Assembly: GCF_964204645.1 (NCBI RefSeq)
Contig: NC_134033.1
Location: 8,750,655-8,814,654 of the forward strand
Source of the DNA: Tubulanus polymorphus
Taxonomy: Eukaryota; Animalia; Nemertea
DNA: 64,000 nt
Direction: 5' to 3'
Shown here: piece after piece, positions 1-23,868 of the stretch
How the letters are laid out: every line of letters begins with the position of its first letter
How positions within the stretch are numbered: position 1 is the first letter of the stretch
The notes under the pieces: generated by a model
The model's database searches: none
Told to the model about the DNA's origin: nothing
The model's input: only the letters and a program-made list of their open reading frames with translations
Made by a program: the position numbers and the translations under genes

Positions 1-3000
1 AGTTTTATAAAGTCAGAAGAAAAAATGGATTATAATATTCAAACACACTCTGAAGAAATAATTTCAAAAACACAAATAAAAGAGAAGTTAGAAAAAATAT
101 TTAATGAATTTAAACGTCATATTGAAGAAAGATATTTTGAGGGTTCTGGCTTAACATTGAATGAAATTATATATTTAGATTTAAATGTTTATAATACAAA
201 AAGAAATAAAACATCAAAAAGTAATAAAATGTTTAAAAATGATTCAAACTTTATAACAGAAAAAGATATGAAAGCATCAAGTTATATCAAATTACCATTT
301 ATAACAAAAGCAGTAATAAATATTCAAAATGAAGATAATAAATGTTTTCTATGGTCAATTATTAGTTGCTTACATCCAACAGAAGAACATGTTTATAGAA
401 TAACAGATTACCAGAAATATGAAACATTATATAAAATTGATCAATATCCAGTAACTATAAAAATGATTCCTAAAATAGAAAAAGTTAATAATTTAAAAAT
501 AAATGTATTCGAATTAATGCAATTACCAAAGACAAAAGGTGAAAATATTAAAGATTATACATTGGAAGCTTTATATTTAACTGAATATTATGATGATGAA
601 AATGCTATAGATTTGTTATATTACAAAAAAGATGAAAATGAACATTATATGTGGTTAAAACAAATTGATTTATTCTTTAGAACAGAAAGTGATTTTAACA
701 GCCATAGAATTTATCTATGTAGAAAATGTTTATCTAAATTTAGAACTGAGAATACATTATTAAAACATAAAGAATTATGTGATAATAAAGATTTTTGTAA
801 ATTAATAATGCCAACAGAAAAAGATTATAAATTGAAATTTACTAATCATAAATTTAAAAATATTGTTCCATTTGTAATATATGGGGATTTTGAATCATTG
901 AATAAAGAATTAACTGATCAAGATAGAAAAGAAATATATAACAAAAAGCAATTATTAAAATCAATGGATAAAGGAAGTGAATTAAATGAAGACATAATAC
1001 AAGACCCACCAATTATAAATACAATTAAAAAAGTTCATCAAAGAGCTGCTGCTTATGGAATTTATATAAAATCAAATTATCCCGAATTATATGAAAGTCA
1101 ATATATTTCTTTTAGAGGTGAAAATGTAGTTAATGATTTTTGTGATAAAATGATTGAATTAGAAAGTGATTTTGCAAAATTATTGAATACAAATAAAGAA
1201 ATAATTATGACAGAAGAAGATGAAATTGATTTTAATTATGCAACTCATTGTTGTTACTGTGAAAAACGTTTTTATTCATTTGATAAAAAAGTAAGAGACC
1301 ATGATCATTTGAATGGAAAGTTTAGAGGCGCTGCACATGAGAATTGTAATTTACAAGCCAAAAAAGTAAATTTTGTCCCCATTATATTTCACAATTTATC
1401 GGGGTATGATACCCATCTATTTATAAAACAGTTATGCTATAAAATAGAAGAAATTAATAATGAAATAGAAATATTAAATTCAAATAGATTAAAAGATAAC
1501 AAAGTATCAACTTATAAATTTAAAATACTAGCTAAAACATCTGAAAATTATATTTCATTCCAATTTGGGTGTTTAAGATTTATAGATTCATATAGATTTC
1601 TAGCAAGTTCATTAGATAATTTAGCAAAAAGTTTAGTTGATAATGATTTTAAAATAACTCAACATTATTATCAAAATGAACAAGATTTTAAATTATTAAG
1701 ATATAAAGGAGCGATTCCATATTCTTTCTATAAAAATCATAATGATTTTAAAATAACAGAATTATTAAAAGATCAATTTTATGATAAATTAAAAGAGGAG
1801 TATGTGAAAGATGAAGTGTTTAATAGAACATTAAATATTTGGAACCATTTTAAGATGAAAAATCATGGTGAATTAGTTGATTTATATTTAAAATCAGATG
1901 TTATGATATTGGCTGACATATTTGAAAAATTTAGAGAAGTTAATTTGAATCATTTTAATGTTGATCCTTGTTATTGCTACTCTAGTCCTGGTTTAACCTG
2001 GCAATGTGGTTTAAAATATACAAATGTAGAATTAGATTTATTAAAAGAACCAGATATGGTTTTATTATTTGAAAAATCAATTAGAGGTGGAATTAGTGGT
2101 GTTATGGGAGATAGGTATTTTAAAGCAAATGATGAATATAAATTATTATATATTGACGCCAATAATTTATATGGTTGGGCAATGATGCAACCTCAACCAT
2201 ATAAAAATTTTATATTAACAGAAGTTGAAAATGATGATAAAACTGATTGGGAAAGCGCAATTATTAGTTTAAAAGACGAAGCACCAATTGGTTATTTCTT
2301 TGTAGTTGATTTAGAATATCCTGAAAATATAAAGTTTAAAACAAGAAACTTACCTTATTGCCCAGAACATTTAACTGTAGATGATAGTTAATTAAGTGAA
2401 TACCAGAAGAAAATAAAACCGAAAGATCATGTTTTTACAGAAAAATTAATACTTACTCAAAATAATAAATACAATTATATTGTTCATTATAGAATGTTAA
2501 AATTTCATCTAAAGCAAGGAATGAAATTAAAGAAAGTACAAAGATATATTGAATTTAATCAATCGAAGTGGTTAGAAAAATATATAGATTTCAATACTCA
2601 ACAGAGAACAATATCAAAAACAGATTTTGAGAAGGATTTTTTTAAATTGATGAACAATAGTTTTTATGGTAAAACTTGTGAGAATATTCGTAATAGAAAT
2701 GATATTGAATTAGTGAATAATTCTGAAAGATTAAGACATTTACAATCAAGCCCCAGACATTTACAAAATAAAAGATTTGAAGATTATTTAACAGCAGTAA
2801 AATTAAAAAGAACATCTATGAAATTTAATAAACCAATATTTATAGGTTCAACTGTTTTAGAAGTTTCAAAGCTATTGATGTATGAATTCTATTACAATGT
2901 TTTACAACCACTTTTTGGAGAAAAACATATAGAAATATTATATTTTGATTCTGTAACAGCTGACACCCCAATATTATTAAAATGTAATAATAAAATATTG

Positions 3001-4469
3001 GTAAGAAGAATTTCAGAAATAATTCCTAATCAAAATAAATCTTATATTTTGTATGGTGAAAAAGAATTAATACAAATAAATGGATTAATGGATGTTTGGA
3101 CAAGAAATGGATGGAAAAAATTAAATAATATTATTAGACATAAAACAAATAAGAAAATCTATAGAGTTAGAACTAAATTAGGATTTGTAGATGTTACAGA
3201 AGATCATAGTTTAATTAAACAAAATGGTGATGAAATAAAACCAACTGATATAAAAATTGGAGATGAATTATTACATAAAAGATTTTACCCAAGAATGAAT
3301 CATATGTCATTTGATGAAATAATTGATAATATTTATAATATAGAACCCGAAACATTAGAAGAAAAAGAATATTTTATCAAAGGATTTTTCATGGGTGATG
3401 GTTCAGCAGGTGTGTATAAATATGTTTGGGGTAATAAATATTGTTGGTATTTATGCAATCAAGACTTAAAATTATTAGAAAGAATTAAGAAATTTTGCGA
3501 AAAAGTTTATTCACATAAAACATTTAGAATCATGGACCATATGAAATCATCCGCGGTTTATAGAATACTTGTAAATAATCCTAAAGATTTTGCTTTAAAA
3601 TATAATGATGAATTCTATATTCATGCAATAGTGAAAAGTAATACTTCGACAAAAGAAAAGATAGTTCCAGATTATGTATTAAATGCAAAAAATAATTTAA
3701 GAAAATGGTTCTTCATTGGATTCTATGCAGCAGATGGTTCAAAAAGTTTCCAAAACCGCAAAACAATATCCTTTGCTCAAAAAGGAAAAGTTGCTATATC
3801 AGGATTAAATATATTATGTAATTCATTAGGTTTTAATATGAATATTGGATTGATTAAATCTAAACCAAATTGCTTTAATCTAAGCCATGTAGAAAATGAG
3901 TTAACTGAAGAAGTTAAAGATTTATTTGAAATATATAACCCAACTGACTATGTTTATGATTTATCAACAGATGATGGAACATTCAATTCTGGGTTCCCAT
4001 TAATCCAAAAAATACTGACAGTTACATACTAAAAATCAAGACAAATGACATAACAAAAGACTTAAAAACATTAAAACATCATTTTGATTTTAGCAATTAT
4101 CCTAAAGATCATGAACTATTTAGCAATGATAATAAAAAGATTCCTGGTAAATTTAAAGATGAATTAGGAGGTGATGAAATGATTGAATTTGTTGGGATAA
4201 GAAGTAAAATGTATAGTTAAAGAACAAAAGATCATGAAGCTAAAAAGTTAAAAGGAATAACAAAACATGTGGTTGATAAACATATAGAATTTCAAGATTA
4301 TATAAAGTGTTTATATAAATCAATTGTAATGAAACACAAAATGAATTGTTTAAGATCAGAAGATCATGAGATGTACATTAATGAAGTTGAAAAAACTAGT
4401 TTAAATCCATTTGATGATAAAAGGTATATTTTAGATGATGGTATAAAAACATTACCTTATGGCCATTAA
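1..4469 (+). pseudogene. polB: Protein-primed family B DNA polymerase (pPolB) with HNH/EndoVII-like insert and an intein; disrupted
   Basis: Motifs: exonuclease YGDFES, FHNLSGYD, IDSYRF; EndoVII-like CxxC...RDHDH...GAAHENCN; polymerase YIDANNLYG, KLMNNSFYGK, YFD[intein]TDS, GKFKDE, SKMYS, KLKG, DDKR. The frame is open from position 1. In-frame TAA at 2389-2391 and 4218-4220; 1-nt frameshift in an A-run at ~4007-4012. Confidence 0.93.
2950..4013 (+). mobile_element. Intein with dodecapeptide (LAGLIDADG) homing endonuclease at the pol-c site of pPolB
   Basis: Block A SVTADTPI directly follows YFD. Block B VDVTEDHSL (~3187-3213). LAGLIDADG-like motifs FIKGFFMGDG (~3373-3402) and FFIGFYAADG (~3709-3738). 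Block F YVYDLST. With one A restored, the C-terminus is ...LIQKN followed by extein TDS (4014-4022). About 355 aa. Confidence 0.93.
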
Positions 4470-5767
4470 AACATAAAATCAATATCATAATACTCGAAAT
4501 CACTATTGGCTTCTTCATTTTCATTTAATTGTTCAGGTTCTTCTTCCATTCCATTTTTCTCATTTAAATAAATTTCTATCTTGTTCCACATTTCATCTCG
4601 CTCTCTTTGTTTCTTTTTGTTTGTTAATTCATCAAATGGAATTATAATATCTAGGTTTAAATAATTTACAATCTTATTTAAAAAGAATTCATAATTTATT
4701 GAATCTGTTATTCTATTTTCCAAATGATACATTAATATTTGTTTAAATATTTTTCTTATATTTTCCATATCTTCTTCTGTTAATTTAGGTTTTTCATAAT
4801 AATCGTTAAATAATAAATATAAATACATTTTCTTTTCTTTTGTGTTAAATGTTGGTGGAATAATTGTTTTTATAATATCTTTTTTAGTTATTTCACCATT
4901 TTTATTTTCTATTATTTTCATTTTTTCAAGCCATTGTATATATTCTGGTGTATGATCTTCTATAGAAAATATTTTAAAAATTTCATCAAGATAATTTAAT
5001 TTTGGATCTATAAGAAAATTTCTAGTTTTTTCTTCATCCCATAAATTCTTTTGCCATCCACAATCAACACAAAATAACACAGTACCTTCTTGTCTTAAGG
5101 TCGCATAACTACATTGTGGACATTTTCGTTTATAATTTATTGGTAATAGATCTTCATTAAGCTCTTGGTATTTTCTTACGTTTTCTTTATGTTTTATTGT
5201 TCTATTATGTAGATTTGAATTACTTGTTGTAATAATCAATTTACAATATTTACAATAATATGTTTTTCTTGTTAATTCATTATATTGTTTTTCTAACTTT
5301 TCAATTGTTTCTTCATTATCTGGTAACGTTTTCTCATATTTTATTTTTTCTAATAAATTATTTTTTCTTTCATTGAATTCAGTTTCAAATTTATTAGAAA
5401 TTTTATCTATATGTGCTTTACGAAATTGATGATTCTCCCAATCTTCTTTATTATCAGGGATGTATTTCATTCGACAAGGCTCGCAGAAATGATTTTTTAT
5501 TTTATCCTTATCATAGAATAAGGAAGGTCTTTTCCAAATAATTTCAGGTTCAACTTCAGCAGAATTATTATCAACATTAGCTGTTGCGCCATTAATTCTA
5601 CACTTCTCTGAATGTTTTTTAACATAATTTCTTGAGAATAATTGATTACATTTTGGGCAGTTTATTTTAGGGGGTTTATAATTTTCATCATGTTTTTTCA
5701 TATGTCGAGCCTTATTACTTTTTCTTAGAAGTTCACCACAAATTTCACATGCTATCTTCTCATCCAT
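4466..5767 (-). CDS. Multi-zinc-finger protein with C-terminal poxvirus/NCLDV VLTF3-like late transcription factor domain
   Basis: N-terminal C2H2-like fingers (CEIC..H..H, CPKC, CEPC, CKYC..H..H), a Zn ribbon CPQC...FCVDCG, and C-terminal INYEFFLNKI..L...IPF...K....DEMWNKI, matching the VLTF3 pattern NY.f.L.K...D.iW.KI as I recall it. Confidence 0.7.
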   Translation of the reverse strand: MDEKIACEICGELLRKSNKARHMKKHDENYKPPKINCPKCNQLFSRNYVKKHSEKCRINGATANVDNNSAEVEPEIIWKRPSLFYDKDKIKNHFCEPCRMKYIPDNKEDWENHQFRKAHIDKISNKFETEFNERKNNLLEKIKYEKTLPDNEETIEKLEKQYNELTRKTYYCKYCKLIITTSNSNLHNRTIKHKENVRKYQELNEDLLPINYKRKCPQCSYATLRQEGTVLFCVDCGWQKNLWDEEKTRNFLIDPKLNYLDEIFKIFSIEDHTPEYIQWLEKMKIIENKNGEITKKDIIKTIIPPTFNTKEKKMYLYLLFNDYYEKPKLTEEDMENIRKIFKQILMYHLENRITDSINYEFFLNKIVNYLNLDIIIPFDELTNKKKQRERDEMWNKIEIYLNEKNGMEEEPEQLNENEEANSDFEYYDIDFMF

Positions 5768-5835
5768 TTATTTAGGAAAAATTTTATTAAAATTAATTTT
5801 TAGTGATGAGCGGTAATTTTTTTATGTCATAAATA

Positions 5836-6594
5836 ATGGTAGAATTAAAAGAATACAGAATATTTGTTGATTCTAGAAAACTTACAAATTATAAATCTCA
5901 TAATTTATTAGTACAATTAGATAGAGAATTTAAGAATTGCGTTGATTTGAAATTAGTAAATATAAGTTTATGTAATTCTTTTTATAATATATCGGATAAA
6001 ACTTTCGAACATAGAGGTTTTGCAATTCATATGAAAAATAAAAATAAATGGTTTTATCTAATGTTAAAACCAGGATTATATAATTTAGAAACATTAGCGC
6101 AAGAAATTAATAAAAGAGCTCGTTTAAAACTTGGAAGTGAATATAAATTTTCAATTAGATTTATAAAAAGTGATAGTTCTGATAAAATTAAAATAAAGTT
6201 AGATGATGAAAGCAAACATGCATTTATGGTAAGGAAACCTTTAGCTAAACTGTTAGGAATTAAACCACAAATTGTTACAGGAAACGTAGATGATAATTCA
6301 AATATAATACCTTTTACACACTTTTATATTTATTGCAATTTAATCGATCCTACAAAAACATTTGAAGCAACTAAAGATACAACATGTAATTCTGGTTTAC
6401 TAAACATTTTACCATTGAAGAATGTTAAACAATTTGGAACGCAAATAAATTATAATTTAACAGAATGTGATTTTAAACCTTGCATTCCTCATTTTAATAA
6501 TTTTAGATTAGAAATAAGAAATCATAATGGATACTTAATTGATTTAAATAACTTTCCTGTGATATATGAATTAGTTATAAGATGTAAAGAGTAA
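5836..6594 (+). CDS. Minor capsid (penton-like, single jelly roll) protein
   Basis: C-terminal pattern YIYCNLI...LLNILP...FKP...FRLEIRNHNGYLIDLNNFPVIYELVIR is typical of Polinton/PLV minor capsid proteins; viral context. Confidence 0.7.
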   Translation: MVELKEYRIFVDSRKLTNYKSHNLLVQLDREFKNCVDLKLVNISLCNSFYNISDKTFEHRGFAIHMKNKNKWFYLMLKPGLYNLETLAQEINKRARLKLGSEYKFSIRFIKSDSSDKIKIKLDDESKHAFMVRKPLAKLLGIKPQIVTGNVDDNSNIIPFTHFYIYCNLIDPTKTFEATKDTTCNSGLLNILPLKNVKQFGTQINYNLTECDFKPCIPHFNNFRLEIRNHNGYLIDLNNFPVIYELVIRCKE

Positions 6595-6610
6595 TTTTTT
6601 CATTATATAA

Positions 6611-6970
6611 ATGAATATAACTGTTGGACCGAGTATATGTTTTGGATTTGATTTTAAACGTGAGAAAGAAATAAAATTTAATATTAATGATGTAATAACA
6701 CATATCAAAAATATTACATTTTCTAATGAAACAACATTTGAGTATGAAACAACAATTGATAAAGAAACTTTAAATGTAGAAAAGATTACTAATTTAATTA
6801 GAGAATCTTTAAGATTTTATGAATTAGATGAAGATTTTATCATCGATGATATTAAAAAAATAATAATTGAAATATATGATAATCATAAAACTAGTAATGA
6901 AATAAATGTTGAATTAATCATAAATAAGTTAACTAAATATTTTGATGATAGTAATTTTTTTGATAAATAA
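6611..6970 (+). CDS. Hypothetical acidic viral protein
   Basis: Intact 119-aa ORF starting at the element-wide TAAATG motif. Confidence 0.6.
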   Translation: MNITVGPSICFGFDFKREKEIKFNINDVITHIKNITFSNETTFEYETTIDKETLNVEKITNLIRESLRFYELDEDFIIDDIKKIIIEIYDNHKTSNEINVELIINKLTKYFDDSNFFDK

Positions 6971-7192
6971 ATGAGTGATAATAAGTGGATAATAACTGGA
7001 TTATATAATGGCGCATTACTATCAGTTGGAACTGTTGGTTATTCAATGGTATTAAAAAAAGTATTCAAAATGGGAAGTGTTAATGTTGATAGATTTGATA
7101 TAAATGATATTTTGAAATTAACATTAGCAGTTACTTTATCTAATTTAACTATTGATTATTTGGAAAAACAAAAATATATTCCTCCCATATAA
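6971..7192 (+). CDS. Small hydrophobic (membrane) viral protein
   Basis: 73 aa, two hydrophobic segments; TAAATG start fused to the preceding stop codon. Confidence 0.65.
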   Translation: MSDNKWIITGLYNGALLSVGTVGYSMVLKKVFKMGSVNVDRFDINDILKLTLAVTLSNLTIDYLEKQKYIPPI

Positions 7193-7216
7193 ATGCATAA
7201 TTTTTTTGTTAAATAA

Positions 7217-7639
7217 ATGGCTTCTGCAATTATAACTATTATAGGATCAGCAATTGTTAACGCTTTAGCATTTACTGGTGGTGGATATTTATTTAAACAT
7301 ATTGATAAAAATGGATCATTAACAGAACAAAAAAGACATAATTTAGCGTTAGAGAAATATAATAAAGATGCAGAAGAATATAGAGAAAAGAGACAAAACT
7401 ATATGGATTACATCAATAAAGAATTATATGATCAGAAGATTTCACACAGAGATTTTCAATCAGTTGATGATGCAATGAGTTTATATAACGCAGTAACCAA
7501 TAAAGAAAAATTACATCTATACAAACCTAAATTATCAGATTATTATACCCCAAGTAAAGAACAACAGAAATATGAAATAATATGGATTTTAGGTGGAACT
7601 GTTATTGTTATATTTGTTGCTTATAAGTTTACTAATTAG
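7217..7639 (+). CDS. Viral membrane protein (hydrophobic N-terminus, coiled coil, C-terminal TM)
   Basis: MASAIITIIGSAIVNALAFTGGG, charged helical middle, IIWILGGTVIVIFVAY; TAAATG start. Confidence 0.7.
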   Translation: MASAIITIIGSAIVNALAFTGGGYLFKHIDKNGSLTEQKRHNLALEKYNKDAEEYREKRQNYMDYINKELYDQKISHRDFQSVDDAMSLYNAVTNKEKLHLYKPKLSDYYTPSKEQQKYEIIWILGGTVIVIFVAYKFTN

Positions 7640-7658
7640 TAATTTTTTTGTTAAATAA

Positions 7659-8093
7659 ATGGAAGATAAAGTTGATAGTATTGATATTATTCCTCATGAT
7701 ATAAATAAAACTAAATTAAAAACATATTTAGAAAAACAAATATTAGAATTTGAAAGTGACTTAAAGATAAAAAAGAAAAAATATTTAAAAAGTAAAATTA
7801 TATATTATCTTATTATTAGTGGTTCGGTTACAATTAGTTCTGTAATAACATTTCTAGCAATATTTAGTCCATTAACACCTTTAGCTATATCAATTGGTGT
7901 ATTAGGATTGAGTTCAAGTGTTTTAACTGGTATAAGTTCAAAATTAAATATAAAAAGTAATAAAGAAAAAATCAAAACTAATATAAAAGAAATTAATAAA
8001 TTAAAGAACACACTAGATTATATAATAAGTTTAAATGGTCATATAACAGTTGAAGAACAAGATAAATTATTAAAAGAATTAATAAATTATTAA
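7659..8093 (+). CDS. Two-TM hairpin membrane protein flanked by coiled coils
   Basis: Hydrophobic stretch IIYYLIISGSVTISSVITFLAIF...LAISIGVLGLSSSVLTGI; TAAATG start. Confidence 0.65.
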   Translation: MEDKVDSIDIIPHDINKTKLKTYLEKQILEFESDLKIKKKKYLKSKIIYYLIISGSVTISSVITFLAIFSPLTPLAISIGVLGLSSSVLTGISSKLNIKSNKEKIKTNIKEINKLKNTLDYIISLNGHITVEEQDKLLKELINY

Positions 8094-8109
8094 TTTTTTA
8101 ATTATATAA

Positions 8110-9444
8110 ATGGCAGATAGTTTTCCAAAAGCTTTCCAATATAATAAATCAATTAAATATAATATTCCGGCAATAGATTTTAAGAAAAATATTACATATA
8201 AAAATATAGTTTTAAATTCATTAACTAATTTAGAAATTTATGTTAATGAATCACAGTTTTTTATTTCTATAATGGAAAATATATTTAATACATATGAAGT
8301 TACTTTTACTCGAGATGAATATCATATATATAAAGTAAAATCTAATATGAAATATTGGCAGAATCAATTAAATTTTGCTGTTTATTGTGCAACAACAGGA
8401 TGTGGAATAAGTTGGAATGATCATTTAAATAACTTAGATAAAAATTTGAAGTATTCTGATTTAAAATTAATTCACACAATATTTAGATTTCACACATATT
8501 TTCAAATCAGAATAATATTAAATGAATTAGAATGTCCTTTACCCGGGTCTAAATATTTTAAAGAATTGGATAATAATATTAATATATCCAAGTTTTATAA
8601 AACATGTAATGAATTTAATATAAATATTAATTCCGATTTCAGAGCGCATGGTAAATTACAAGGTGTTGGTGAACAGTATGAAATAAAAAGAATTGATTAT
8701 ATGCATAGAATTGGAGCTTATCATAATTATAAAATTGATAATAATAATGGTTGGGTTAATTTCATTTTAGAAAATGGTGAAGGTTTTACAAAATCAGGTA
8801 TACAAAGAATAAATCAATCTATTAGAATTTATTTGATATGTATTCTAGGCGCCCAAGTTGAAACAAGATCCCCAATAATTGGAAATGATAACACTTCATT
8901 CGATGCGCAGAAACAGTTTAAAGTTTTATTTGAAGATTCCATACATGATGATAAAAATAGATCGATTCCAGAAAACATTATAAGATATCAAAATTATTTA
9001 GATAAATCTCATGTAAGACTAAATTATTGTATAGGCCCTAATCTATTAATTATTTCTAATGATTTAGTATTGAAGATGGGAAACATAATTGGTTATAATA
9101 ATCTAATTAAAACTGCAACAATAAATAATTCATTTGGGTTAAATGATATAAATAAAAAGATTATTACTGCTCCAAAATCAATGGAAGGTGAACAAAATAA
9201 AAAACACATTCAATCAACAGAAACTAAAACTAAGAATATTAAATTGGTTAATGATTCCAAAATAAAAGATTACAATACATCAGAAAATGTTGCCGTACGG
9301 CACCCACATGGTGATAATAGAACTGATATTATTCAACATGATATAATTAAAACTAATGATGATAATAAATCCCATGAAAATACTAAATTAGCTATAACTT
9401 GTATAGGAATTGTAATCGGAGGAATATTATATTTTAAATTTTAA
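8110..9444 (+). CDS. Uncharacterised viral protein with C-terminal TM anchor
   Basis: Intact 444-aa ORF, WQNQLNFAVYCATTGCG block, C-terminal LAITCIGIVIGGILYF; TAAATG start. Confidence 0.7.
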   Translation: MADSFPKAFQYNKSIKYNIPAIDFKKNITYKNIVLNSLTNLEIYVNESQFFISIMENIFNTYEVTFTRDEYHIYKVKSNMKYWQNQLNFAVYCATTGCGISWNDHLNNLDKNLKYSDLKLIHTIFRFHTYFQIRIILNELECPLPGSKYFKELDNNINISKFYKTCNEFNININSDFRAHGKLQGVGEQYEIKRIDYMHRIGAYHNYKIDNNNGWVNFILENGEGFTKSGIQRINQSIRIYLICILGAQVETRSPIIGNDNTSFDAQKQFKVLFEDSIHDDKNRSIPENIIRYQNYLDKSHVRLNYCIGPNLLIISNDLVLKMGNIIGYNNLIKTATINNSFGLNDINKKIITAPKSMEGEQNKKHIQSTETKTKNIKLVNDSKIKDYNTSENVAVRHPHGDNRTDIIQHDIIKTNDDNKSHENTKLAITCIGIVIGGILYFKF

Positions 9445-9460
9445 TTTTTTTATTATGTAA

Positions 9461-10918
9461 ATGGATGTAGAAGGTGGAGAAGATTATGAAATGGGAGAAA
9501 TGGGAAATGATAATGAAGGATATATTGATGATGATTATAATGATGCAGAAACTAATATTGATAATAATGATGAATCAGCATATAATTCTAATTTAGCAGA
9601 TAGTGGTTCTAAAGGTCAATCAACAGATGAATTTGATAGAAGAACTAGATCGAGAATAAATCCTGAAAATGAAAATCCAGATTTAGTAAAACAAAATTTA
9701 GAATATAATGAATATATTTATAATTTCAAACCTATATTTGAAAAATCTGGATATAATATCAATGCTAGAGGCGCCAGACTTTTAGTACAAGAATTAAAAT
9801 CTTTAGATGGTGAATATTATTAACATTTGAAAGATGATTATTATATTGATATCTCTTATAAAAAACAAAACAAAATATTAGCAGAATCAACTTTGCTTAA
9901 GTTAGACCTATCTAGAATTAAAAGAATAAAAAATAGTAATGAACCAGAAGATGTAACACAAGAAGAAATTATTAAAAATGAAAGAGTATTTAAACAAAGA
10001 ATTAATGAATTATTTGAAACAATCGATAATAATTTAGAACCAGAAACAAGTTCTGAACAGAATATAACTTCCAAAACTAGTAAACTTAAATCAAATAAAG
10101 TTCCAATTGAAAAACTTTTACCGAATGGGTTACTTGATGCAACAGATCAAGAATTAGAAGATTTAGATATATTTTCTGATAAAGCAATTAGAGAAATTAT
10201 TAGTATAAGACTTGCATCTGATAAAATTGCACATGATAAAAGTATAAGAGATTTAAAAATTAGAACTTTAGAAGATGAATTATTAAAATCAAGAAAAGAA
10301 ATAGAACAATTGAAATTAGATAGAGATAATAAAGTTATTGAAGAAATTGAATTTAAAAAAAGAAATGCATATTTAGAAAAAGAAATTGATGATTTAGAAT
10401 ATAACATAGAATTACAAAAAGAAGAAATTAAATCATTATTTAAATCATATGATTATAATATTGATAGATTAAAAGATGTTTTTAAAAGATATCTAATAAA
10501 ACCAGATTCTAGAATATCATTAAAAGATAGAATAAAATTATTATTTAAGTTTGAAGGAATAACAATTCTTTCAATTCTAACAGCTGTAACTATGTTATTT
10601 ACAACAATTGGTTTAGCAATATCAAATGCTTTGAAATCTACTCCTACTCCAAATAAACCGGATAAACCTCCAGGCAATAATTCTATACAAGATAAAGTTA
10701 AAGAAGGTTTAAAGAAATTAGCAAAATATTTATGGGAACTATCAAAGAAATCTGCTGCAGCATTGCCAGGAGTTATTGCCTCAATTGTTGGTTTTGTTTT
10801 AAAATCTGCAGGAAACATTATTAACTTTGCTGCTGAACATATTATTTTATTTTTAATTACAGTTGTAAGTGCTATTATTTTTGGTTTAGTAAACATGATA
10901 TCAAAAAATATCAAGTAA
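9461..10918 (+). pseudogene. Acidic/coiled-coil protein with C-terminal hydrophobic helices, split by one stop
   Basis: ORFs 9461-9823 and 9827-10918 are in the same frame, separated by TAA at 9821-9823; copy 3 reads TGG (YYWHLK) at the equivalent position. Confidence 0.75.
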
Positions 10919-10958
10919 CCATGATGAAAAATAAATAATTAATTTTTTTGTTAAATAA

Positions 10959-12204
10959 ATGAGTGGGAGTTATATAAGTCCTTCTAAGATTTCTAGAATA
11001 TCTAACGCTATTAAAGCAGAAAGATCACATCATATAATTACTCATAACCCTTCAAATATTAATCCCGATGAAACTTTATACGTTAGAATCCCTCGATTAA
11101 CACAAAATACTTTTTACGTTCCAAATAGTATTTATTTATCTGCCGATATAAAAGTATCTGGTAATAATAATAATTATGTCGTTGATAATGTTGGAAGATA
11201 TTTGATTAAAAAGTTAACAATAAAGATTGGTCCAGAAACAGTTTTCTCATTAGATGATTATAATTTATTTATGCATTATAAAGATTTATGGTTAACAAAA
11301 GAAAATAGAAATAATATGATATTTCAAGGCATCCAATCAGAAAACCAAAATAAATTAAGATCAGAAGCTAATAGCGCAATATTAACAAATGATGTAGAAA
11401 TTGATAAAAAGTATATATGGAAGCAAATATAAAATTCCATTAGACTTTGAATTGATAAATAATAATGCGCCTTTATATAAATACGCAATTCAAGAAGATA
11501 TTATATTCGAGATAACATTTGCTCCTGTAAATGAAATTGTATTATCTAGCGTTAATAAAGATATGAGTTATAAATTATCGAATATATGTTTAGAATATGA
11601 TACAGTAACTGATGAAAATATTGCTAGAACAATTCAAACTCAATACAATCAAGGATTTTCATTATTATATGATTATATTGATAAATTTAAAACTGTAACT
11701 ATTAATGCAAATGATGAAATAATAAATGAGAATATTAACTTCCCAAGAAGATCTATTAAAGGTATATTAATATTTTTTACTATTGGAACATATACTAATG
11801 GTGCAATAAATGTTGACAATTATTATAATCCTGAAATAACAAAAGTAGAAATAACTATCGAAGGTATAGCGAATAAAATATTTTGTCAAGGAATGAGAAT
11901 GATAGATCAATGGGTAGAAATTAGAAAACATTTTATGAATGAAAAAATAAAATCATTTGAAAATTGTAACATTAATCAAATTGATTATTATACCGGTAAT
12001 AAATATGCATTATGGTTAGATTTTAGAACAACTGAAGATAATTCATTACATGGTTCTGGAAAAAAACTACAAAATACAAAAGATGGAATACAATTATTCA
12101 TGACAAAGAAAAAGGGAATCAAAAATTTTCAAATGCACATTTATATTATATCTGACGCGCAATTAAATATTATAAATTCACAATTAGATAGTATTCAATA
12201 TTAG
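10959..12204 (+). pseudogene. Major capsid protein (double jelly roll), frameshifted near 11400
   Basis: Two overlapping ORFs (10959-11432, 11401-12204) join to ~415 aa with a beta-strand-rich pattern (NPSNINPDETLYVRIP...IKKLTIKIG...YKIPLDF...ALWLDFR); size and position next to integrase/ATPase fit a Polinton MCP. Confidence 0.75.
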
Positions 12205-12234
12205 AAATATAAAGTTAAAATTAAGGATATATAA

Positions 12235-13362
12235 ATGAGTGGTAAAAAAACTACTAATACTAAAGAACAATATTTAAGAAATTTATATTACAACCCTGAG
12301 AGTTCGGTTGCTTATTCTTCTACTAAAAATATATGGCGTAAAGTAAAACAAGATAAATTAGATAAGATAATCTCACAAAATTTAGTTAAATATAAAGATA
12401 TAAATGAATTTATGTTAGAACAACCAACATATACAACACATAAAAAAATTGTTAGAAAATATAAAACTCGTAAAACTATGGTAAGTTATGTAGATCAACA
12501 GTGGCAAGGAGATTTAATTGATATGAAAAATGTTAAGAAAAATAATGATGATTATTGGTGGTTATTGAATATAATTGATATTTTTAGTCGTTATGTATGG
12601 AGTTTCCCACTTTATAGAAAAGATGCTGCACAAACATCACATGTTTTAAGAAAATTTCTTTCGGATGATAAACTAAAACCAGAAAAAATACAATTTGATG
12701 ATGGAAAAGAGTTTGATAATTCACTTGTTCGTGAACTCTTAGATAATCATAATATTAAATATTTTTCAACAAAATCAGATAAAAAAGCAGCAGTTGTTGA
12801 ACGATTTAATAGAACATTAAGAACAAGAATGTGGAAATATTTTACAGCAAATAATACTTTTAAATGGATTGATGTTTTACCAAAATTGATAGAAGGATAT
12901 AATAATTCTTATCATTCTTCTATTGGAATGAAACCTATTGATGCTAGAAAACCCGAAAATGCTGAAATTGTTTGGAATAATTTATACGAAGCATTTCTTG
13001 TTGATGATTTTGGTGAACCTAAATTTAAAGTTGGTCAAAATGTTAGAATTTCTAAGTATAAAAAGATATTTGATAAAGGATACGATCGAAATTTTACTAG
13101 AGAAATATATAAAATAAAAAAGGTAATAACAACAAAACCATATGTCTATAAATTAGAAGATTTAGATGGTGAAGAAGTTGATGGCTACTTTTATGAAGAA
13201 GAATTAAGTTTAACTACTGAAAATCTAGAACAAGAATATAAAATTGAAAAAGTATTAAAAACAAAAACTGTTAAAAGAAAAAAATATTCTTTAGTAAAAT
13301 GGGTTGGATGGCCAGATAAATTCAATGAATGGATATTATCAAGTAAAATTAAAAATATATAA
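12235..13362 (+). CDS. int: Retroviral-type (rve) DDE integrase with C-terminal chromodomain
   Basis: WQGDL..IDIFSRY, QFDDGKEF, KAAVVERFNRT, YNNSYHSSIGMKP; chromodomain YKIEKVL...VKWVGWPDKFNEWI. Confidence 0.95.
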   Translation: MSGKKTTNTKEQYLRNLYYNPESSVAYSSTKNIWRKVKQDKLDKIISQNLVKYKDINEFMLEQPTYTTHKKIVRKYKTRKTMVSYVDQQWQGDLIDMKNVKKNNDDYWWLLNIIDIFSRYVWSFPLYRKDAAQTSHVLRKFLSDDKLKPEKIQFDDGKEFDNSLVRELLDNHNIKYFSTKSDKKAAVVERFNRTLRTRMWKYFTANNTFKWIDVLPKLIEGYNNSYHSSIGMKPIDARKPENAEIVWNNLYEAFLVDDFGEPKFKVGQNVRISKYKKIFDKGYDRNFTREIYKIKKVITTKPYVYKLEDLDGEEVDGYFYEEELSLTTENLEQEYKIEKVLKTKTVKRKKYSLVKWVGWPDKFNEWILSSKIKNI

Positions 13363-13971
13363 ATGAATAAGGAATTATTCATATTTGAGCCTCATAATAT
13401 GTTAATTTCTGGTGTAACAAATTGTGGAAAAACTTATTTTATATTACATTTATTAGAAACTGTTTATGAAAACTATTTTGATAATATAGTATTATTTTGT
13501 CCAACATATGAATTTAATCAAACTTATGATAAAAATATTACTAGGAATAATAAATTTATTATATTAGATCCTAAAACAGTAAAAGAAAATTTAGATAATT
13601 GTATAAAAATAGCAATTGATATTTATAAAGGATCAAATACATTATTTATCATAGATGATTGTGCTAATATACATGATTCAAAAGTTAGAGAAAGTGAGTT
13701 ATGTTATTTAGCTTTTTCTGGCAGACATTTTGGGATAACAACTTGGGTTTTAAATCAAAAATATAATTCAATTGGTAAAGATTTTAGAGAAAATATTAGA
13801 TTTCTAGTTTTATTCTACAATAAAGATAGAAAATCGATGAAAAATGCACTTAAGGAAAATGATATTATTCCACATGATTTACATAATGAATATATGGATA
13901 AGTTGAAAAATATTAAAAAATCAAAATTACTATTTAGATTACAACACCCATTTAAATATGAATTTATTTAA
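13363..13971 (+). CDS. A32/FtsK-like DNA packaging ATPase
   Basis: Walker A GVTNCGKT, Walker B LFIIDD, GRH..I....Q and R.N motifs. Confidence 0.93.
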   Translation: MNKELFIFEPHNMLISGVTNCGKTYFILHLLETVYENYFDNIVLFCPTYEFNQTYDKNITRNNKFIILDPKTVKENLDNCIKIAIDIYKGSNTLFIIDDCANIHDSKVRESELCYLAFSGRHFGITTWVLNQKYNSIGKDFRENIRFLVLFYNKDRKSMKNALKENDIIPHDLHNEYMDKLKNIKKSKLLFRLQHPFKYEFI

Positions 13972-13974
13972 ATT

Positions 13975-14225
13975 CAATTAGTTTGTTAATCTAGTTGAAT
14001 TCTAGTTATTGGTAGTTGTAACAAAAATCAAATAGATTTAACAATATTTTAACTAGCTTGTTAATCTAGTTTAATTCTAGTTACATTCTAATTGAATTCT
14101 AGTTGTTAGTAGTTGAAACAAAAATCAACTAGATTTAACAAGAAATAAACAAAAACACTAATATTTCAACTAGCTTGTTAATCTAGTTGAATTCTAGTTA
14201 CATTCTAGTTAAATTCTAGTTGCAA
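13975..14225. repeat. Intergenic array of CTAGTT/GAATTC-rich short direct and inverted repeats
   Basis: Repeated AATCTAGTTGAATTCTAGTT / ATTCTAGTT units with inverted AACTAGATTTAAC; shorter versions at ~16547-16735 and ~20685-20745. Confidence 0.85.
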
Positions 14226-15664: not shown

Positions 15665-15750
15665 TTATTAGGAAAAAAAAATTACTTGTGGTGATGAGTG
15701 GTGTTTAGTACTCTCGTACTCTGGCCTGAAAACGCCATCTTCCAATTACT
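15658..15750 (-). repeat. Right terminal inverted repeat of Polinton copy 1
   Basis: Reverse complement starts AGTAAT and contains TTTCAGGCCAGAGTACGAGAGTAC and CTCATCACCAC, as does the copy 3 left TIR at 17868. Confidence 0.9.
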
Positions 15751-17768
15751 GGTGAAGAAGTTGATGGGTATTTTTATGAAGAAGAATTAAGTTTAACTAC
15801 TGAAAATCTAGAACAAGAATATAAAATTGAAAAAGTATTAAAAACAAAAACTGTTAATAGAAAAAAATATTCTTTAGTAAAATGGGTTGGACGGCCAGAT
15901 AAATTCAATGAATGGATATTATCAAGTAAAATTAAAAATAGATAAATGAATAAGGAATTATTTATATTTGAGCCTCATAATATGTTAATTTCTGGTGTAA
16001 CAAATTGTGGAAAAGCTTATTTTATATTAAATTTATTAGAAACTATATTTGATAATATAGTATTATTTTGTCCTACATATGAATTTAATCAAACTTATGA
16101 TAGAAATATTACTAGAAATAATAAATTTATTATATTAGATCCTAAAACAGTTAAAGAAAATTTAGATAATTGTATAAAAATAGCAATTGATATTTATAAA
16201 GGATCTGATACATTATTCATCATAGATTATTGTGCAAATTTACATGATTCAAAAGTTAGAGAAAGTGAGTTATGTTATTTAGCTTTCTCTGGGAGACATT
16301 TTGGGATAACAACATGGGTTTTAAATCAAAAATATAATTCAATTGTTAAAGATTTTAGAGAAAACATTAGATTTTTAGTTTTATTCTATAATAAAGATAG
16401 AAAATCGATGAAAAATGCACTTGAGGAAAATGATATTATTCCACATGATTAACATAATGAATATATGGATAAATTGAAAAATAATAAAAGATCAAAATTA
16501 CTATTTCGATTACAACACCCATTTAAATATGAATTTATTTAGATTCAACTAGCTTGTTAGTCTAGTATATTTTTAGTTACATTCTAGTTTAATTCTAGTT
16601 GTTAGTAGTTGAAACAAAAATCAAATAAAATTCAACAAGAAATAAATAAAAACAACAATATTTCAACTTGCTTGTTAATCTAATATATTTTTAGTTACAT
16701 TCTAGTTAAATTCTAGTTGAATTCTAGTTGCAACATCACAACTAATTTTTTTTGTTATATAAATGGGTGGTGAAAAGAAAATAAAATCTAAAAATAGTGA
16801 TGTTCCGATTGGAAAAACTTTGGATGATTTAGGTATAACAGAAACAAAATTAGCGTCAGATGATAATGGTGCTTTAAATGATATTACTACAAATAATAAT
16901 TATCAATATTATCTTTATTGCAAACATCGCTTAGAAATATTAATTGCATCTGGGAAATGTAAAAATTTTATTAGTAAAAATTTAACTTATAATGAATTAG
17001 GTACAATGAAATCAGATGAAATTATTAGATTATTTATGAAACTGCGAGAACAGCTAGAATTAATGATGCGATGTCAGAAAATGCAGTAAAAGGTTATAGT
17101 AAATTATGCAATTATATGCTACCAATTCAAGATGAAAATGAATTATATTCCGATTTAAAAAATGATTACTTAGTTATGACTGAATTAAATAAATGGATTG
17201 GATATTTATCATTTCAATTAGGTGGATTTATGACATTATTATCAACTGGAGTTATAACATTTTCAAATATTGAAAGTAAAAATATTTCTATAATAAATGA
17301 GCTAAGTGCGAGAGGTGAAAGAATTAACTGTGAAGAAAAAACCGAGATCACAGAAACAAACTGACTGGTCTCGGCAATTAGGAATTAGATCACTAGAATA
17401 TAAAAAGCTATAAAAGAAAAAATAAATAATTAAGATGTTAATGAAAATGGTGAAAATGTTGTTATTTCTACTACTTCTAATAATAGAATATTTGATAAAT
17501 ATTTATATTTTACAACTGGTTTGTAATTGTATTCATTTTGATTGGGTGTAGTTGGTATAAGAAATCAGATAAAATTTATGATATTAATAATTCTGAAACT
17601 ACTGCTATTAAAAATGAAAATACTTCTAAAATTCCAAAATTCATAATAAAAAAAATGGATTGATATTTTAGAAAAAACAAAAAAGCAAAAAAAATGATTT
17701 TATTTTTAATTAATTGAATATCTCACTACTTTTGTATATCTACGCGGAGCAATTGAATTGTCCAGATA
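15751..17768 (+). mobile_element. Polinton copy 2 remnant (integrase 3' end, ATPase and two downstream genes, degraded)
   Basis: Colinear with 13168-~15283 of copy 1; ATPase ORF 15946-16452 has mutated Walker motifs and a premature stop; ORFs 16763-17089 and 17071-17364 are frameshifted. Confidence 0.92.
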
Positions 17769-17867
17769 CTTCTCTCCTCAGTGTTGTAATTAAGAAACAA
17801 ATGGTATCAAATATCAAGAGCCCAATGGGTTTTAATGATTTGAATTTAATTTAAGTATTGTACTCAT

Positions 17868-20800
17868 AGTAATGGGGAAATGACGGTTTCAGGCCAGAGT
17901 ACGAGAGTACGACTCATCACCACTTTTATTTTTATTTCCTTATAAATGGGAGAGAGTGAACACCAAACAGAAAAAATGATGTTATTAAAAATCAATATTA
18001 TTGTACATATTGTAAAAAATACATTGATAAATCTAATATTAACATCTGATTATAGATTTTGAGACACCAGAATATTCCAATGAAAGAAAAGAACAATTAG
18101 AAAATATGAAAAAAGATGAAATTAAATGTAATGTTTGTAATAAATTTCTAAGTAAAAGAAATTATGATAGACATCATCTTGAATCACAAAAAAACACAAA
18201 CAGAATTTAAGTAAAAATATTTTAGGAACAGAATATATTGAGGATAAATCTCAATTTTAGAAACATTACATAGTAAAATTGGTCCTGCAGCTATTATATT
18301 TAGATTTTTTAAAGGTGCGACGATAGAAGATTATAGTAGATGTATTGAAATAATGGAAAAAATAATTTGTAACAGATGTTGTAACAGATGTTGAATCTCC
18401 AAAATTTAGTATTTCTGGAAAAGTAAGTTTTATAAAATCAGAAGGAAAAAATGTGTATAATATTCAAACACATTCTGAAGAAATAATTTCAAAAACACAA
18501 ATAAAAGAGAAATTAGAAAAAATATTGAATGAATTTAAACGACATATCGAAGATATTTTGAGGGTTCTGGTTTAATTATAATTATATTTTAAGATCTAAA
18601 TATCTATAATACAAAAAGGAATAAAACATCAATAAGTAATAAAGTGTTTACTAATGTTGGATATTCAAGCGTCATTTTATATTAGATTACCATTTACAAC
18701 AAAGCAGTTATAAATGTTCAAAATAAAAATAATAAATGTTTTCTATGGTCAATGATCAGTTGTTTACACCCTACCGAGGAAAATGTTTGCAGAATAACAG
18801 ATTATTGGAAATATGAAACATTATATAGAATTGATTAATATCCAGTAACTATAAAAATGACACCTAAAATAGAAAAAGTTGATAATTCAAAAATAAATGT
18901 ATTCGAATTAATGAAATTCCAGAGACAAAAGGTGAAAATATTAAAGATTATGCATTAGAAGCTTTATATTTAACAAAACATTATGATGATGAAAATGTGA
19001 TAGATTTATTATACTATAAAAAAGATAAAAATGAACATTATATGTGGTTATAACAAATAGATTTACTTTTCAGAACAGAAAGTAAATGTAGAAAGTAAAT
19101 AGAAAGTAAACAGATTTGAATAGTCATAACAAGATATATTTATGTAGAAAATGTTTATCTAAATTCATTACTAAAACATAAGGAATTATGTGATAATAAA
19201 GAATTTAACTAATTAATAATGCCAACAGAAAAATACTATAAATTGAAATTTACTAATTATAAATTTACTAAATATAGTTCCATTTGTAATTTATGGGATT
19301 TTGAATCGTTGAATAAAGAATTAACTGATCAAGATAGAAAAAAAAATTATATAATAAAAAGCAATTATTAAAATTGATGGATAAAGGAATGAATTAAATG
19401 AAGACATAATTCAAGACCCGACGGAAGCGTCCTGAGGACATATCTATAAAAGAATTTCGAGGTTACTTCCGAGTTTGAGAAAACTAGTTTATTCCGAGTT
19501 GCAAACTCGGAATAAACCTCCAAAAATCACATTTAACTATGAAAACTAGTTTATTCCGAGTTACAAACTCGGAATTGACCTCAAAAATCGTATTTAACTG
19601 AGAAAACTAGTTTATTCCGAGTGGCAAACTCGATTTTAACCTCGATTTTTTTACAGAAATGTCCCCAGGACGCTTCCGTAGAATTGTAATAGGAGGAATA
19701 TCATATTTTAAATTTTAATTTTTTTATTATATAAATGGCAGAAGGTGGTGAAGAAATTGGAATGGATACTTTTGATGAATCTGGTATAACTGATGTACAA
19801 GAACCTGTTTTTAATGAAACAAGTTTAAATAATGATGATAATGAAACAGCATATAATACTAATTTAGCAACACCATATAATAAATTTGATAATAATTGAA
19901 TACTGAAAATTTAGATCCAAAACTAGAAAAAAAAGTATTAGATTTTGAAAAAATGATTGATGATTTTTAACCAATATTACAAAAATCTGGATTTAATATA
20001 ACTGATAAAGGTGCTAGTGCACCAAATTTGATAGATCTAAATGATGATTATTATTGGCATTTGAAAGATGACTATTATTTTAAGATATCTTCTGATAAAA
20101 GTCGTGATAAAATAGTAACAAAATCAACTTTGGTTAGATTAGAACAATCTAGAACTAAAAGAATAAGTAATAATAATGATGATATAACTGATGACAAGAA
20201 ATAAATGAAAATAGAGGAATATTTAATGGAAGGAATGATGAAGATAATTAATGAAAATTTAGAACCAGAAACAATTGGTAACGAAGTTATCAACTCAGAA
20301 ACCAGTACATAACCAAAACAAGAAAATAAAAGTGTGATGGGCCGGGATACGTCATCAATGTTTACATGCTGATAACAGTATTAAAATCGTTGTATACAAG
20401 TTAATTAGGAAGAATTGGAAATTTCAACTAGCATTATGCTAAACAACAACAAGAGTAGAAATGAATGGCCAATTATAATTTTTTGCCTGCAGTTCCCCTG
20501 TTAAGATTTTAGAGAAAACATTAGAGTTTTAGAATTAGTTTATAATAAAGATAGAAAATCAATGAATAATGCACTTGAGGAAAATGATTTACATAATGAA
20601 TATATGGATAAATTAGAAAAAAATAAAAGATCAAAATTATCATTTCGTTTACAACATCCATTTAAATATGAATTGATTTAAACTCAACTAGCTTGTTAAT
20701 CTAGTATATTTTTAGTCACATTCTAGTTAAATTCAATTGTAACAACACAACTATTTTTTTGTCATGTAAGTGGGAGGTGAAAAGAATATATAATCTAAAA

Positions 20801-22208
20801 AAGTGATTTTACAATTGAAAAAACTTTGGATGGTTTAGGAATAACGGAAACAGAATTAACTTCAGATAATGGTGCTTTAAATGATATTACTAAACGTAAT
20901 AATTTTAAATATCATCTTTATTGCAAACATCAATTGGAAATATTAATTGCATCTGGGAAATGTAAGACTTTTTATTGGTAAAAATTTAACTTATATTGTA
21001 TTAGGTATAATGAAATCAGATCAAATTATTAAATCATTTAAGATTTATGAAACTGCAAGAATAGCTAGAATTAATGACGCGATTTCAGAAAATGTACTAA
21101 AAGGTTATTCTAAACTATTAATGATATGCTCCCAATTGAAGATGAAAATAAATTATATTCTGATTTAAACAATCATTTAGTTATGACTGAATTAAATACA
21201 TGGATTGGGTATTTAATATTTCAATTAGGTGGATTTATGACATTGTCATCAACTGGAGAAATAACATCTTCAATATTGAAAGTAAAAATTTTTCTATAAT
21301 AAATGAGCGAAATGGAAGAAGTGAAAGAATTAACCGTGAAGAAAAAACCGAGATCACTGAAACAAATTGAATGGTCTCGGCAATAAGATTTTAAATCAAA
21401 AGAATTTAATAAAGCTTAAAAAGAAAAAATAGATAATGACAATTTTGATAATAAAGATGAAAGTAATGTTATTTCTACTGCATATAAATTATTTAATAAA
21501 TATTTTAATTATTCAACTGGATTTGTAATTGTTGTTAATAATTCTGAAACTACTACTGTTAAAAACGAAAAAATTACTGAAATATCAAAATTCACTATAA
21601 AGATAATGGATTAAAAGTCTAGAAAAAAAGAAAAATAATAATTTTGTTCTATAATATTTCTGTTTATAATTAATTAAATATCGCACTACTTTTGAGAGAT
21701 AAGTCATTTCGGATTCTTGATATTCAATTTAAAAGAAGAGAATACATTTTAATAATTTTATTTTTATTTTCTAATTTTCTATTATTTTTGAAATATTTAT
21801 TCAACAATTTCTAAATCATGATGACCAACTTCATACTTTTTATGATAAATTATTGTGTAACCTTCTAAATCTTTTCATTTATCTTTATTTAATGAAACCC
21901 ATTTATCAGGTGAAAATATTTTAAATTCTCGTGTTATACTAACATTACAATGACTCAAATTTGCTGATATTCTCTCACCATATCTAGTTTTTATGTTTTC
22001 AGGTTTTAATATTCTATGCTCAATTTCTTTTGTTACATCGACTAATTTTTTTATTTCGTATTGTTTTTTTGCTGGTTTTATTTTTTAATTATTGACGCTA
22101 AGAATACTTTTCTGCCCCCCCCCCTCCCATTTATAAGGAAATAAAAATAAAAGTGGTGATGAGTCGTACTCTCGTACTCTGGCAAGATACCGTCATTTAC
22201 CCATTACT
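17868..22208 (+). mobile_element. Polinton copy 3, internally deleted, both TIRs present
   Basis: ~85-bp TIRs at 17868-17952 and 22124-22208 with AGT...ACT ends. Contains degraded pPolB 5' part (17946-19420), part of the coiled-coil gene, ATPase 3' end and terminal genes. Confidence 0.92.
19421..19680. mobile_element. MITE with (T)ACGGAAGCGTCCTG TIRs (IS3EU-like termini) and internal ~60-bp tandem hairpin repeats
   Basis: ACGGAAGCGTCCTGAGGACAT...ATGTCCCCAGGACGCTTCCGTA; three units containing TTCCGAGT..CAAACTCG. Confidence 0.75.
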
Positions 22209-22611
22209 GCTGATTAATTGAAAGACCATGAATCATTTGCAATTTAATTTTCTAAGTATCAATAGATTAACCGAATACATGTACATTTAATTTTGTCAAA
22301 ATATTATTTGTTTGTGCTCCTAAGAAAAAAAACCATTTTCATTCATTCTGAGTTTTGTTACAAGTTCTGTAGTGTTCAGATTATTTGAGAAGAGCCATTA
22401 GGAAAGTTTATGTATTAGCTTTACTTTGTAACACGATACATTTGACATTAAGGCACGTGAGGTACTATGTGACCCAGGTGCGAAAAAACATTCTTATGAG
22501 TTATGTATTTTATCATGTCAACTTATCTTTTTTCACAAACTGTAGCCAAAAATACTGCTGGTCAGTTCAAGAATTAACAATACAACGAGCCCTATCGAAT
22601 TTGACATCGGA

Positions 22612-23760: not shown

Positions 23761-23868
23761 GGTCCAGTTCCACAGTTCTGAGTTAAGATTTGACCCTGGG
23801 TTAAAACATTGAAAATAAACTAGCTTTAACTCAGATTTAACTCAAACTCACAACTGTGGAACTGGGTC
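23761..23868. mobile_element. Small Harbinger-like MITE inserted in the Academ left terminal repeat
   Basis: CCAGTTCCACAGTT...AACTGTGGAACTGG inverted ends; CTG duplicated on both sides; removal restores ATCCATTTCTGATGTTTATTT as at 24001. Confidence 0.8.

Follow-up and report, generated by a model that had tools for sequence, protein, structure and literature searches.

Gene content and copies of the element

The window analysed in this study is a stretch of 64,000 nucleotides from the nemertean Tubulanus polymorphus, in which the GC content is 22-25% in bases 1-22000 versus 34-43% beyond. Its AT-rich part contains a Polinton (Polinton/Maverick group, Polintoviricetes), identified by its genes for pPolB, for an rve integrase with a chromodomain and for an A32 ATPase, together with a capsid gene whose match is weak. 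The pPolB region (1..4463, +; PF03175, E = 1.2e-12) was recognised by Pfam and by tblastn with the polymerase of a related element. At polymerase motif C it contains an intein with a LAGLIDADG domain (2948..4011, +; PF14528, E = 4.9e-7; PF14890, E = 1.5e-5, below its cut-off). Tail to tail with pPolB stands a VLTF3 gene (4466..5767, -). Further on lie the major capsid gene, in two ORFs split near 11400 (10959..12204, +; Capsid_N, E = 7.6e-4, below the cut-off), the integrase (12235..13362, +; PF00665, E = 5.4e-11) and the A32-like packaging ATPase (13363..13971, +; PF04665, E = 3.3e-13). Both pPolB and the capsid gene are broken in the window copy. The likely right terminus is a short tandem unit, AGTACTCTCGTACTCT (15707..15722), located through the inverted repeats I3/I5, which we take to be a Polinton terminus by analogy with other Polinton ends. 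A look-alike of the right end near 15722 stands at the end of the related element, and the left end of the present element lies outside the window.

The sequence-only reading of this DNA had stated that the element encodes no RNA polymerase, and indeed no such family was matched by Pfam among 16 ORFs, the left end lying outside the window. The partner factors A1 and G8 were not recognised among the element ORFs scanned, and no protease family was matched among the ORFs scanned with Pfam. PHROGs gave nothing useful for 12 ORFs. In addition, the ORF at 7659-8093 (+) encodes a two-helix membrane protein with a weak SLATT match (E = 0.0038), and genes of this name appear on published maps of Polintons. 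The ORF at 8110-9444 (+) is intact, encodes 444 aa and follows a copy of the start box described below. It has no Pfam or PHROG match, and its Cys/Gly motif was found 0 times in a pattern scan of viral contigs.

In a run of genomic DNA with the same host label (X6), 51,102 reads fell on bases 1-14000, and most of them were 90-99% alike. VLTF3 was covered to a depth of about 235-270, pPolB to 220-600 and some virion genes to as much as about 1100; these are relative depths, taken without a single-copy control. The element belongs to a multicopy family in which VLTF3 is a regular component. Furthermore, 340 reads carry a different sequence (loose ends) at 5835, just before ORF 5836. These loose ends and the deeper coverage of virion genes, up to four times that of VLTF3, suggest that VLTF3 is different or missing in some subfamilies, possibly with another left module.

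Other repeats were seen to the right of the element. Partial duplicates of its right end and an internally deleted copy occupy 15750-22210, the deleted copy being bounded by 85-nt inverted repeats (17868-17952 and 22124-22208). At the border of the AT-rich block and the flank, a unit of about 107 nt occurs in three tandem copies (22779-23091). A separate element at 23526-29824, with 235-nt inverted repeats (97%) and ORFs of 563, 448 and 425 aa, is probably a DNA transposon.

One relative with DNA context was found, L121 (SMVA01192051.1), which carries the same tail-to-tail pair of pPolB and finger-VLTF3 genes. Its pPolB is intact and intein-free. In X6, 68 reads span the joint 2947-4012 that skips the intein. 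The intein had been presented as part of a new combination with VLTF3. This does not hold, because VLTF3 stands beside an intein-free pPolB in L121 and intein-free copies also occur in X6. A functional link between VLTF3 and the intein was rejected, and the intein is incidental. Its polymorphism among the host copies and its absence from L121 are suggestive of homing inside a single Polinton family. A previous study has suggested that the pPolB of Polintons undergoes intein-type invasions (PMC11161782).

A VLTF3 family protein fused to four zinc fingers

The ORF at 4466-5767 (-) is uninterrupted, and the corresponding frame is open in L121 too. Its product of 433 aa includes four zinc fingers, a VLTF3 domain and an acidic tail; nt 4560 corresponds to aa 403. 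The motifs quoted in the sequence-only reading are all present: CPQC-x13-CVDCG begins at aa 216 (nt 5122) and is followed by NYLDEIF, NYEFFLNKI and DEMWNKI. The assignment to the VLTF3 (poxvirus A2) family also stands, since aa 212-405 matched Pfam PF04947 with E = 4.9e-6 and 26.8 bits (cut-off 25). By definition, Pox_VLTF3 is required, with A1, G8 and the viral polymerase, for transcription from TAAAT late promoters. The full-length protein of 433 aa did not match PF04947 at E <= 1, the Pfam families matched being zinc fingers only. The full-length relatives P0002-P0004 also fell below the PF04947 cut-off, and the PF08792 ribbon model was unmatched by the VLTF3 domain. PF04947 was present in 27 of 30 matches in the ESM Atlas (best score 0.91). 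On an entomopox VLTF3 profile the domain scored 29.3 bits, and the maximum among shuffles was 5.6 (198 scored of 200).

A search of 1.84 billion representatives returned four matches at E <= 0.001, namely P0002 (48% identity), P0003 (39%), P0004 and P0005. P0005 is a clear VLTF3 (PF04947, E = 1.3e-24) and is 60-63% identical to named entomopoxvirus VLTF-3 proteins. The word-index protein search gave 0 matches among 4293 candidates for the full protein, and with the 5-row alignment it returned only two of the alignment's own rows. No relatives were found when viral contigs were scanned with either the VLTF3 domain or the capsid ORF, and a candidate from a metagenome scan (L122) was rejected as a spurious prokaryotic match. 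Taken together, the product of ORF 4466-5767 (-) is confirmed as a VLTF3 family protein fused to four zinc fingers.

The fusion itself had also been noted in the sequence-only reading, and our motif scan placed the four fingers N-terminally at aa 7-26, 37-56, 95-119 and 172-193. By motif scan and alignment, fingers 1 and 2 (aa 7-56; 5600..5749, -) are of the C2H2 and C2HC types. Fingers 3 and 4 (5189..5485, -) are of the U1/matrin type according to Pfam and the motif scan, and finger 4 exceeds the Pfam cut-off for the U1 finger (PF06220, E = 1e-6, aa 169-200). U1-type fingers often bind RNA or protein, not DNA. The four fingers are common to P0001, P0002 and P0003; the last two are the nearest relatives of full length, in which the fingers persist at 45% and 34% identity and the ligands of fingers 1 and 2 are conserved. 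In the alignment, P0004 is without the fingers. For the full protein, the best ESM Atlas score was 0.77 and no cluster had the fusion, which is no evidence of absence. In addition, U1-like fingers start pPolB in L121 (2138-6148, -) and in a Polinton fragment, L131 (4984-8745, +), and also form a small ORF in L136 (6573-6794, -). Thus, the fingers of VLTF3 may derive from a module common in Polintons.

The window element and L121 are 45% identical in VLTF3 and 75% in pPolB. Crude dN/dS values were about 0.7 for VLTF3 and about 0.3 for pPolB, both affected by the AT bias. The VLTF3 frame is open in both elements at dS of about 0.6, whereas under simulated neutral change of 0.1 per site the frame was still open in 0 of 1000 runs. 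Thus, the VLTF3 frame is under selection. A dead passenger gene was rejected, because the frame was kept open and the ligands are conserved.

The VLTF3 domain consists of a C4 zinc ribbon of the A2L type, CPQC-x13-CVDC (5057..5122, -), and a helical core (aa ~248-405; 4553..5026, -) that matches PF04947 and, by VIA-align, is predicted to form a single cyclin/TFIIB-like repeat. The four cysteines of the ribbon are invariant in all eight aligned rows, including entomopox VLTF3, and beta strands are predicted in this region. The predicted fold of the domain resembles the VLTF3s of poxviruses and giant viruses and has a weak similarity to one TFIIB/cyclin repeat. The model built from an 8-row alignment reached pLDDT 82.7. 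Against BFVD it gave ten matches at E <= 0.001, with VLTF3 making up most of the named ones and TM up to 0.67; cowpox VLTF3 was best (E = 9.6e-7, TM 0.67), followed by entomopox and giant-virus VLTF3s, a ranking biased by the five entomopox-type rows among the eight. The alignment-free model was poor (pLDDT 58.6) and had no BFVD match at E <= 0.001; cowpox (E = 0.039) and entomopox VLTF3 (E = 0.13) ranked first, weakly. Foldseek against the PDB found no match at E <= 0.001, the best being TFIIB at E = 0.079, and a PDB sequence search gave nothing at E < 0.01. In VIA-align the 16 top rows were all cyclin-fold proteins, including TFIIB, BRF and ORC6, over about 90 residues and one repeat (Z 4.3-5.2). 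However, Z of about 5 falls within the range of common helical arrangements, and the predicted cyclin match is weak when taken alone. It agrees with the published origin of A2L, which has been described as TFIIB-derived (bioRxiv 2022.11.22.517515). The protein thus consists of the four fingers followed by the ribbon, a predicted single cyclin-like repeat and, last, the acidic tail.

The origin of the domain could be a poxvirus or a giant virus. Three Polinton-type domains scored 27-30 bits on the 5-row entomopox profile (shuffles <= 5.6) and 3-17 bits on giant-virus profiles made from 82 domains. However, hhalign was near-equal for an entomopox protein (E = 6.3e-8) and a giant-virus alignment (E = 8.1e-8). 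The VLTF3 tree of 34 rows is unrooted and its long branches meet; its giant-virus rows were 20 random ones plus up to five seeds, and it has no chordopox, asfarvirus, mriyavirus or PLV rows. On these sequence comparisons, we lean towards a pox donor.

A start box at the genes of the element

A box with a T-run and TAA directly before the ATG (TAA/ATG) precedes genes of the element. In its strict form, TAATTTTTT-N2-5-WATAAATG, it occurred eight times in the window and 0 times in 100 shuffles; in bases 1-14000 there were six, against a mean of 0.02 in shuffles of the AT-rich part. The bare TAAATG was not enriched in the same bases (43; shuffle mean 30.8, maximum 43). By pattern scan, six exact boxes (6592..10961, +) lie before virion-module ORFs starting at 6611, 6971, 7217, 7659, 8110 and 10959, and a variant precedes 9461. 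The VLTF3 gene has its own box, AATAAAATTTTT-N2-TAAATAAATG (5765..5797, -), which is near-identical in L121, and the two elements have a conserved sequence ahead of the VLTF3 start. We picked 15 starts by hand, leaving out fragments of broken genes and including one motif-defined start and one duplicate. The ATG comes immediately after TAA in 14 of them, and position -10 is a T in 14 as well; TAA precedes 43 of all 584 ATGs. The integrase and ATPase starts have TAA/ATG without the T-run.

We then defined a bipartite box as TAA/ATG with at least five T at -7 to -13, before ORFs called automatically. It preceded 8 of the 17 ORFs here and both ORFs in L121. In the 67 other pPolB loci it was present before 4 of 391 ORFs, and in the 26 longer ones that were retained before 3 of 303; the controls are a mix of Polintons, PLVs and one virophage-like locus, many of them fragments, and the two positive elements are kin. 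The box was almost absent even from the AT-rich controls L148 (22% GC) and L139 (26% GC). TAA/ATG stood before 7 of 7 ORFs in L131 and 5 of 15 in L186, with no VLTF3 seen in either, and a looser WTAAA box was near 96 of 303 control starts versus 6.8% of all ATGs. No match to PF04947 exceeded the cut-off in 30 records behind control loci, which are mostly fragments, so the absence of VLTF3 there is soft. The strict box was also found at 120 loci in viral contigs, but the 80 listed among the 120 had one match each and none with a VLTF3-profile match, and we treated them as chance.

Two side observations were made on these control loci. L131 (1-9034) is a Polinton fragment in which TAA/ATG mostly comes without the T-run and VLTF3 is not found in its 9 kb; a region that we take, from its motif, to be protease-like is fused ahead of its integrase. 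In addition, 43 Polinton-like contigs with pPolB (L155-L197) come from bacterial or archaeal MAGs and likely reflect binning contamination, because some of them, such as L186, run into eukaryote-like simple repeats.

Vaccinia late promoters are described as having TAAAT(G) across the start codon and, within a T-rich stretch, a T at -10 (PMC11980589, PMC5294985), and the box of the element matches this shape. A shared promoter motif had already been read from the sequence, as a late promoter. The shared box is borne out by the 8 of 17 ORFs, but the label "late", which would imply initiation within TAAAT after DNA replication and at late genes alone, is not, as the box also precedes pPolB in L121 and VLTF3 itself. 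No pox-late-like box of Polintons was described in the accessible parts of the literature that we searched.

Possible mechanisms and comparison with known systems

We propose, with a little less than even confidence, that the VLTF3-finger protein is the element's own TFIIB-like initiation factor, which brings host Pol II to the T-run/TAAATG box. The ribbon would contact the polymerase as in TFIIB, and the fingers would likely supply promoter or nucleic-acid binding, replacing the missing second repeat and the partners A1 and G8. The polymerase would be that of the host, since the element integrates and encodes none. The outcome may be an element-wide on-switch with positive feedback, not a strict late switch. 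This proposal draws on the PF04947 match over the cut-off, the TFIIB-like predicted fold, the kept fingers, the open frame and the enrichment of the box. In addition, the chromodomain integrase points to the nucleus, and a helper virus would presumably bring its own VLTF3. The sequence-only reading had tied VLTF3 to a viral RNA polymerase. This need not be so: according to the available text of PMC11253617, mriyaviruses, which are presumed to be nuclear, retain VLTF2/3 although they have no RNA polymerase subunits. This also favours host Pol II.

However, several results count against host Pol II. The T at -3 of the box and spacers down to 16 nt fit a pox-type polymerase better than textbook Pol II. 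The VIA-align Z is only about 5 and Foldseek gave no significant PDB match. The link between box and VLTF3 rests on two related elements, and TAA/ATG in L131 and L186 occurs where VLTF3 was not seen; the looser WTAAA box also lies near 96 of 303 control starts. Furthermore, VLTF3 diverges much faster than pPolB, and U1-type fingers frequently bind RNA or protein.

The main rival explanation, which seems to us rather unlikely, is that the element is a virophage-like parasite whose VLTF3 works with the polymerase and partners of a poxvirus-like helper at pox-type late promoters. Initiation would occur within TAAAT, and the fingers would bias the complex to the DNA of the element. The vaccinia-like form of the box (PMC11980589, PMC5294985), so regular at the hand-picked starts (14 of 15 for both TAA/ATG and T at -10, vs 43 of 584 ATGs), fits this explanation. 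However, the bare TAAATG is not enriched in this AT-rich element. The higher bit scores on the entomopox profile than on giant-virus profiles, and the cowpox and entomopox VLTF3s that weakly lead for the alignment-free model, point the same way, but hhalign was equal for both groups, the better model is biased by its entomopox rows, and the unrooted tree, with its meeting long branches and missing groups, gives no firm placement. Polinton-like viruses are reported to occur with entomopoxviruses (PMC11296320, in the text available); however, no helper virus was seen, and one would itself supply VLTF3.

It is quite improbable, in our opinion, that the box is unrelated to VLTF3 and is a compact junction, particular to the clade, in which stop codon, U-rich element, AATAAA/TATAAA and start codon are combined for 3' end processing or translation, the VLTF3 protein having some other nucleic-acid role. 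In several spacers the TAA of TAATTTTTT is indeed the upstream stop, AATAAA/TATAAA overlaps the ATG, and TAA/ATG is common in L131 and L186. However, the box is also present without an upstream gene on the same strand, at VLTF3 (head-to-head with ORF 5836) and at pPolB beside the end of L121, and its full bipartite form is nearly missing from the controls, including the AT-rich ones. Very improbable is a decoy, in which a fast-evolving VLTF3 copy jams the late transcription of a co-infecting large DNA virus and other factors read the box: the divergence faster than that of pPolB in a frame kept open and the inhibition of giant viruses by Polinton-like viruses in protists, as described in the accessible literature, would suit it, but working entomopox factors have the same invariant cysteines in the ribbon and residues in the core, and the bipartite box and the VLTF3 gene occur together in the loci sampled.

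Beyond the host Pol II proposal, we also considered a broader picture, which we hold to be unlikely. Here a Polinton lineage would have its own pox-type switch, consisting of a pox-derived A2 factor that stands alone by means of its four fingers and of pox-late-type promoters on nearly all genes. Such an element might be an endogenous virophage of an unknown invertebrate poxvirus-like virus, or might use host Pol II through a single protein. The question touched here is how animal Polintons switch on their particle genes and whether a helper virus is needed. With a single protein and a start box that matches it, Polinton gene activation could be assayed directly. The pair would also be a simple system in which to study VLTF3, a core factor of large DNA viruses for which no solved relative was found in our PDB sequence and fold searches.

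That VLTF3-like genes may already be noted in Polinton-like elements had been anticipated from the sequence, and this part stands, while novelty through the intein does not. In the text available, VLTF3 is reported in stony coral polintoviruses, citing Krupovic and Koonin 2016 (PMC11131425), in figure legends for MELD viruses (PMC8502044), in two Zephyrvirus clusters, VC123/126, of which about 30% have it, and in figure legends for genomes of Aquintoviruses and Maverick-Polinton relatives (bioRxiv 2026.06.19.733378), and an isolated VLTF3 gene was noted in an E. pallida assembly (PMC5294986). The available text of PMC5499653 has no mention of VLTF. Thus, VLTF3 in Polintons is already known, whereas the four-finger fusion and the T-run plus TAA/ATG box were not found in the accessible parts of the literature searched. 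For the fusion, zinc terms were looked up in the available text of PMC11131425 and PMC11161782, with none present. VLTF was unmatched in the supplements of PMC11131425 and PMC8502044, and the figures of these papers and the bioRxiv supplements may bear on the novelty of the fusion.

Compared with poxvirus A2L/VLTF-3 (PF04947, PF08792), the protein shares a C4 ribbon followed by a helical core, 25-26% domain identity to entomopox proteins, the best BFVD matches and a predicted TFIIB-derived fold, and the box resembles the A2L/VLTF-3 target promoter. However, it is longer at the N-terminus by about 210 residues, which contain the four zinc fingers, and comes from an integrated Polinton without recognised RNA polymerase, A1 or G8. 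The reported VLTF3s of Polintons, MELD viruses and PLVs are likewise accessory genes in a pPolB/rve or PLV genome; compared by description only, and as far as the accessible descriptions go, these include no finger fusion, promoter box or mechanism. Mriyaviruses similarly retain VLTF3 although their small genomes lack an RNA polymerase, and they are presumed nuclear, but, by the available text (PMC11253617), they keep VLTF2 too, lack pPolB, have an HUH endonuclease and are placed in Nucleocytoviricota. Finally, Sputnik, mavirus and PgVV/Gezel-14T also have small-element genes behind a box of large-virus type (bioRxiv 2022.07.28.501842, in its accessible part). In those systems a known helper supplies the factors, whereas the element described here, which has no known helper, brings its own.
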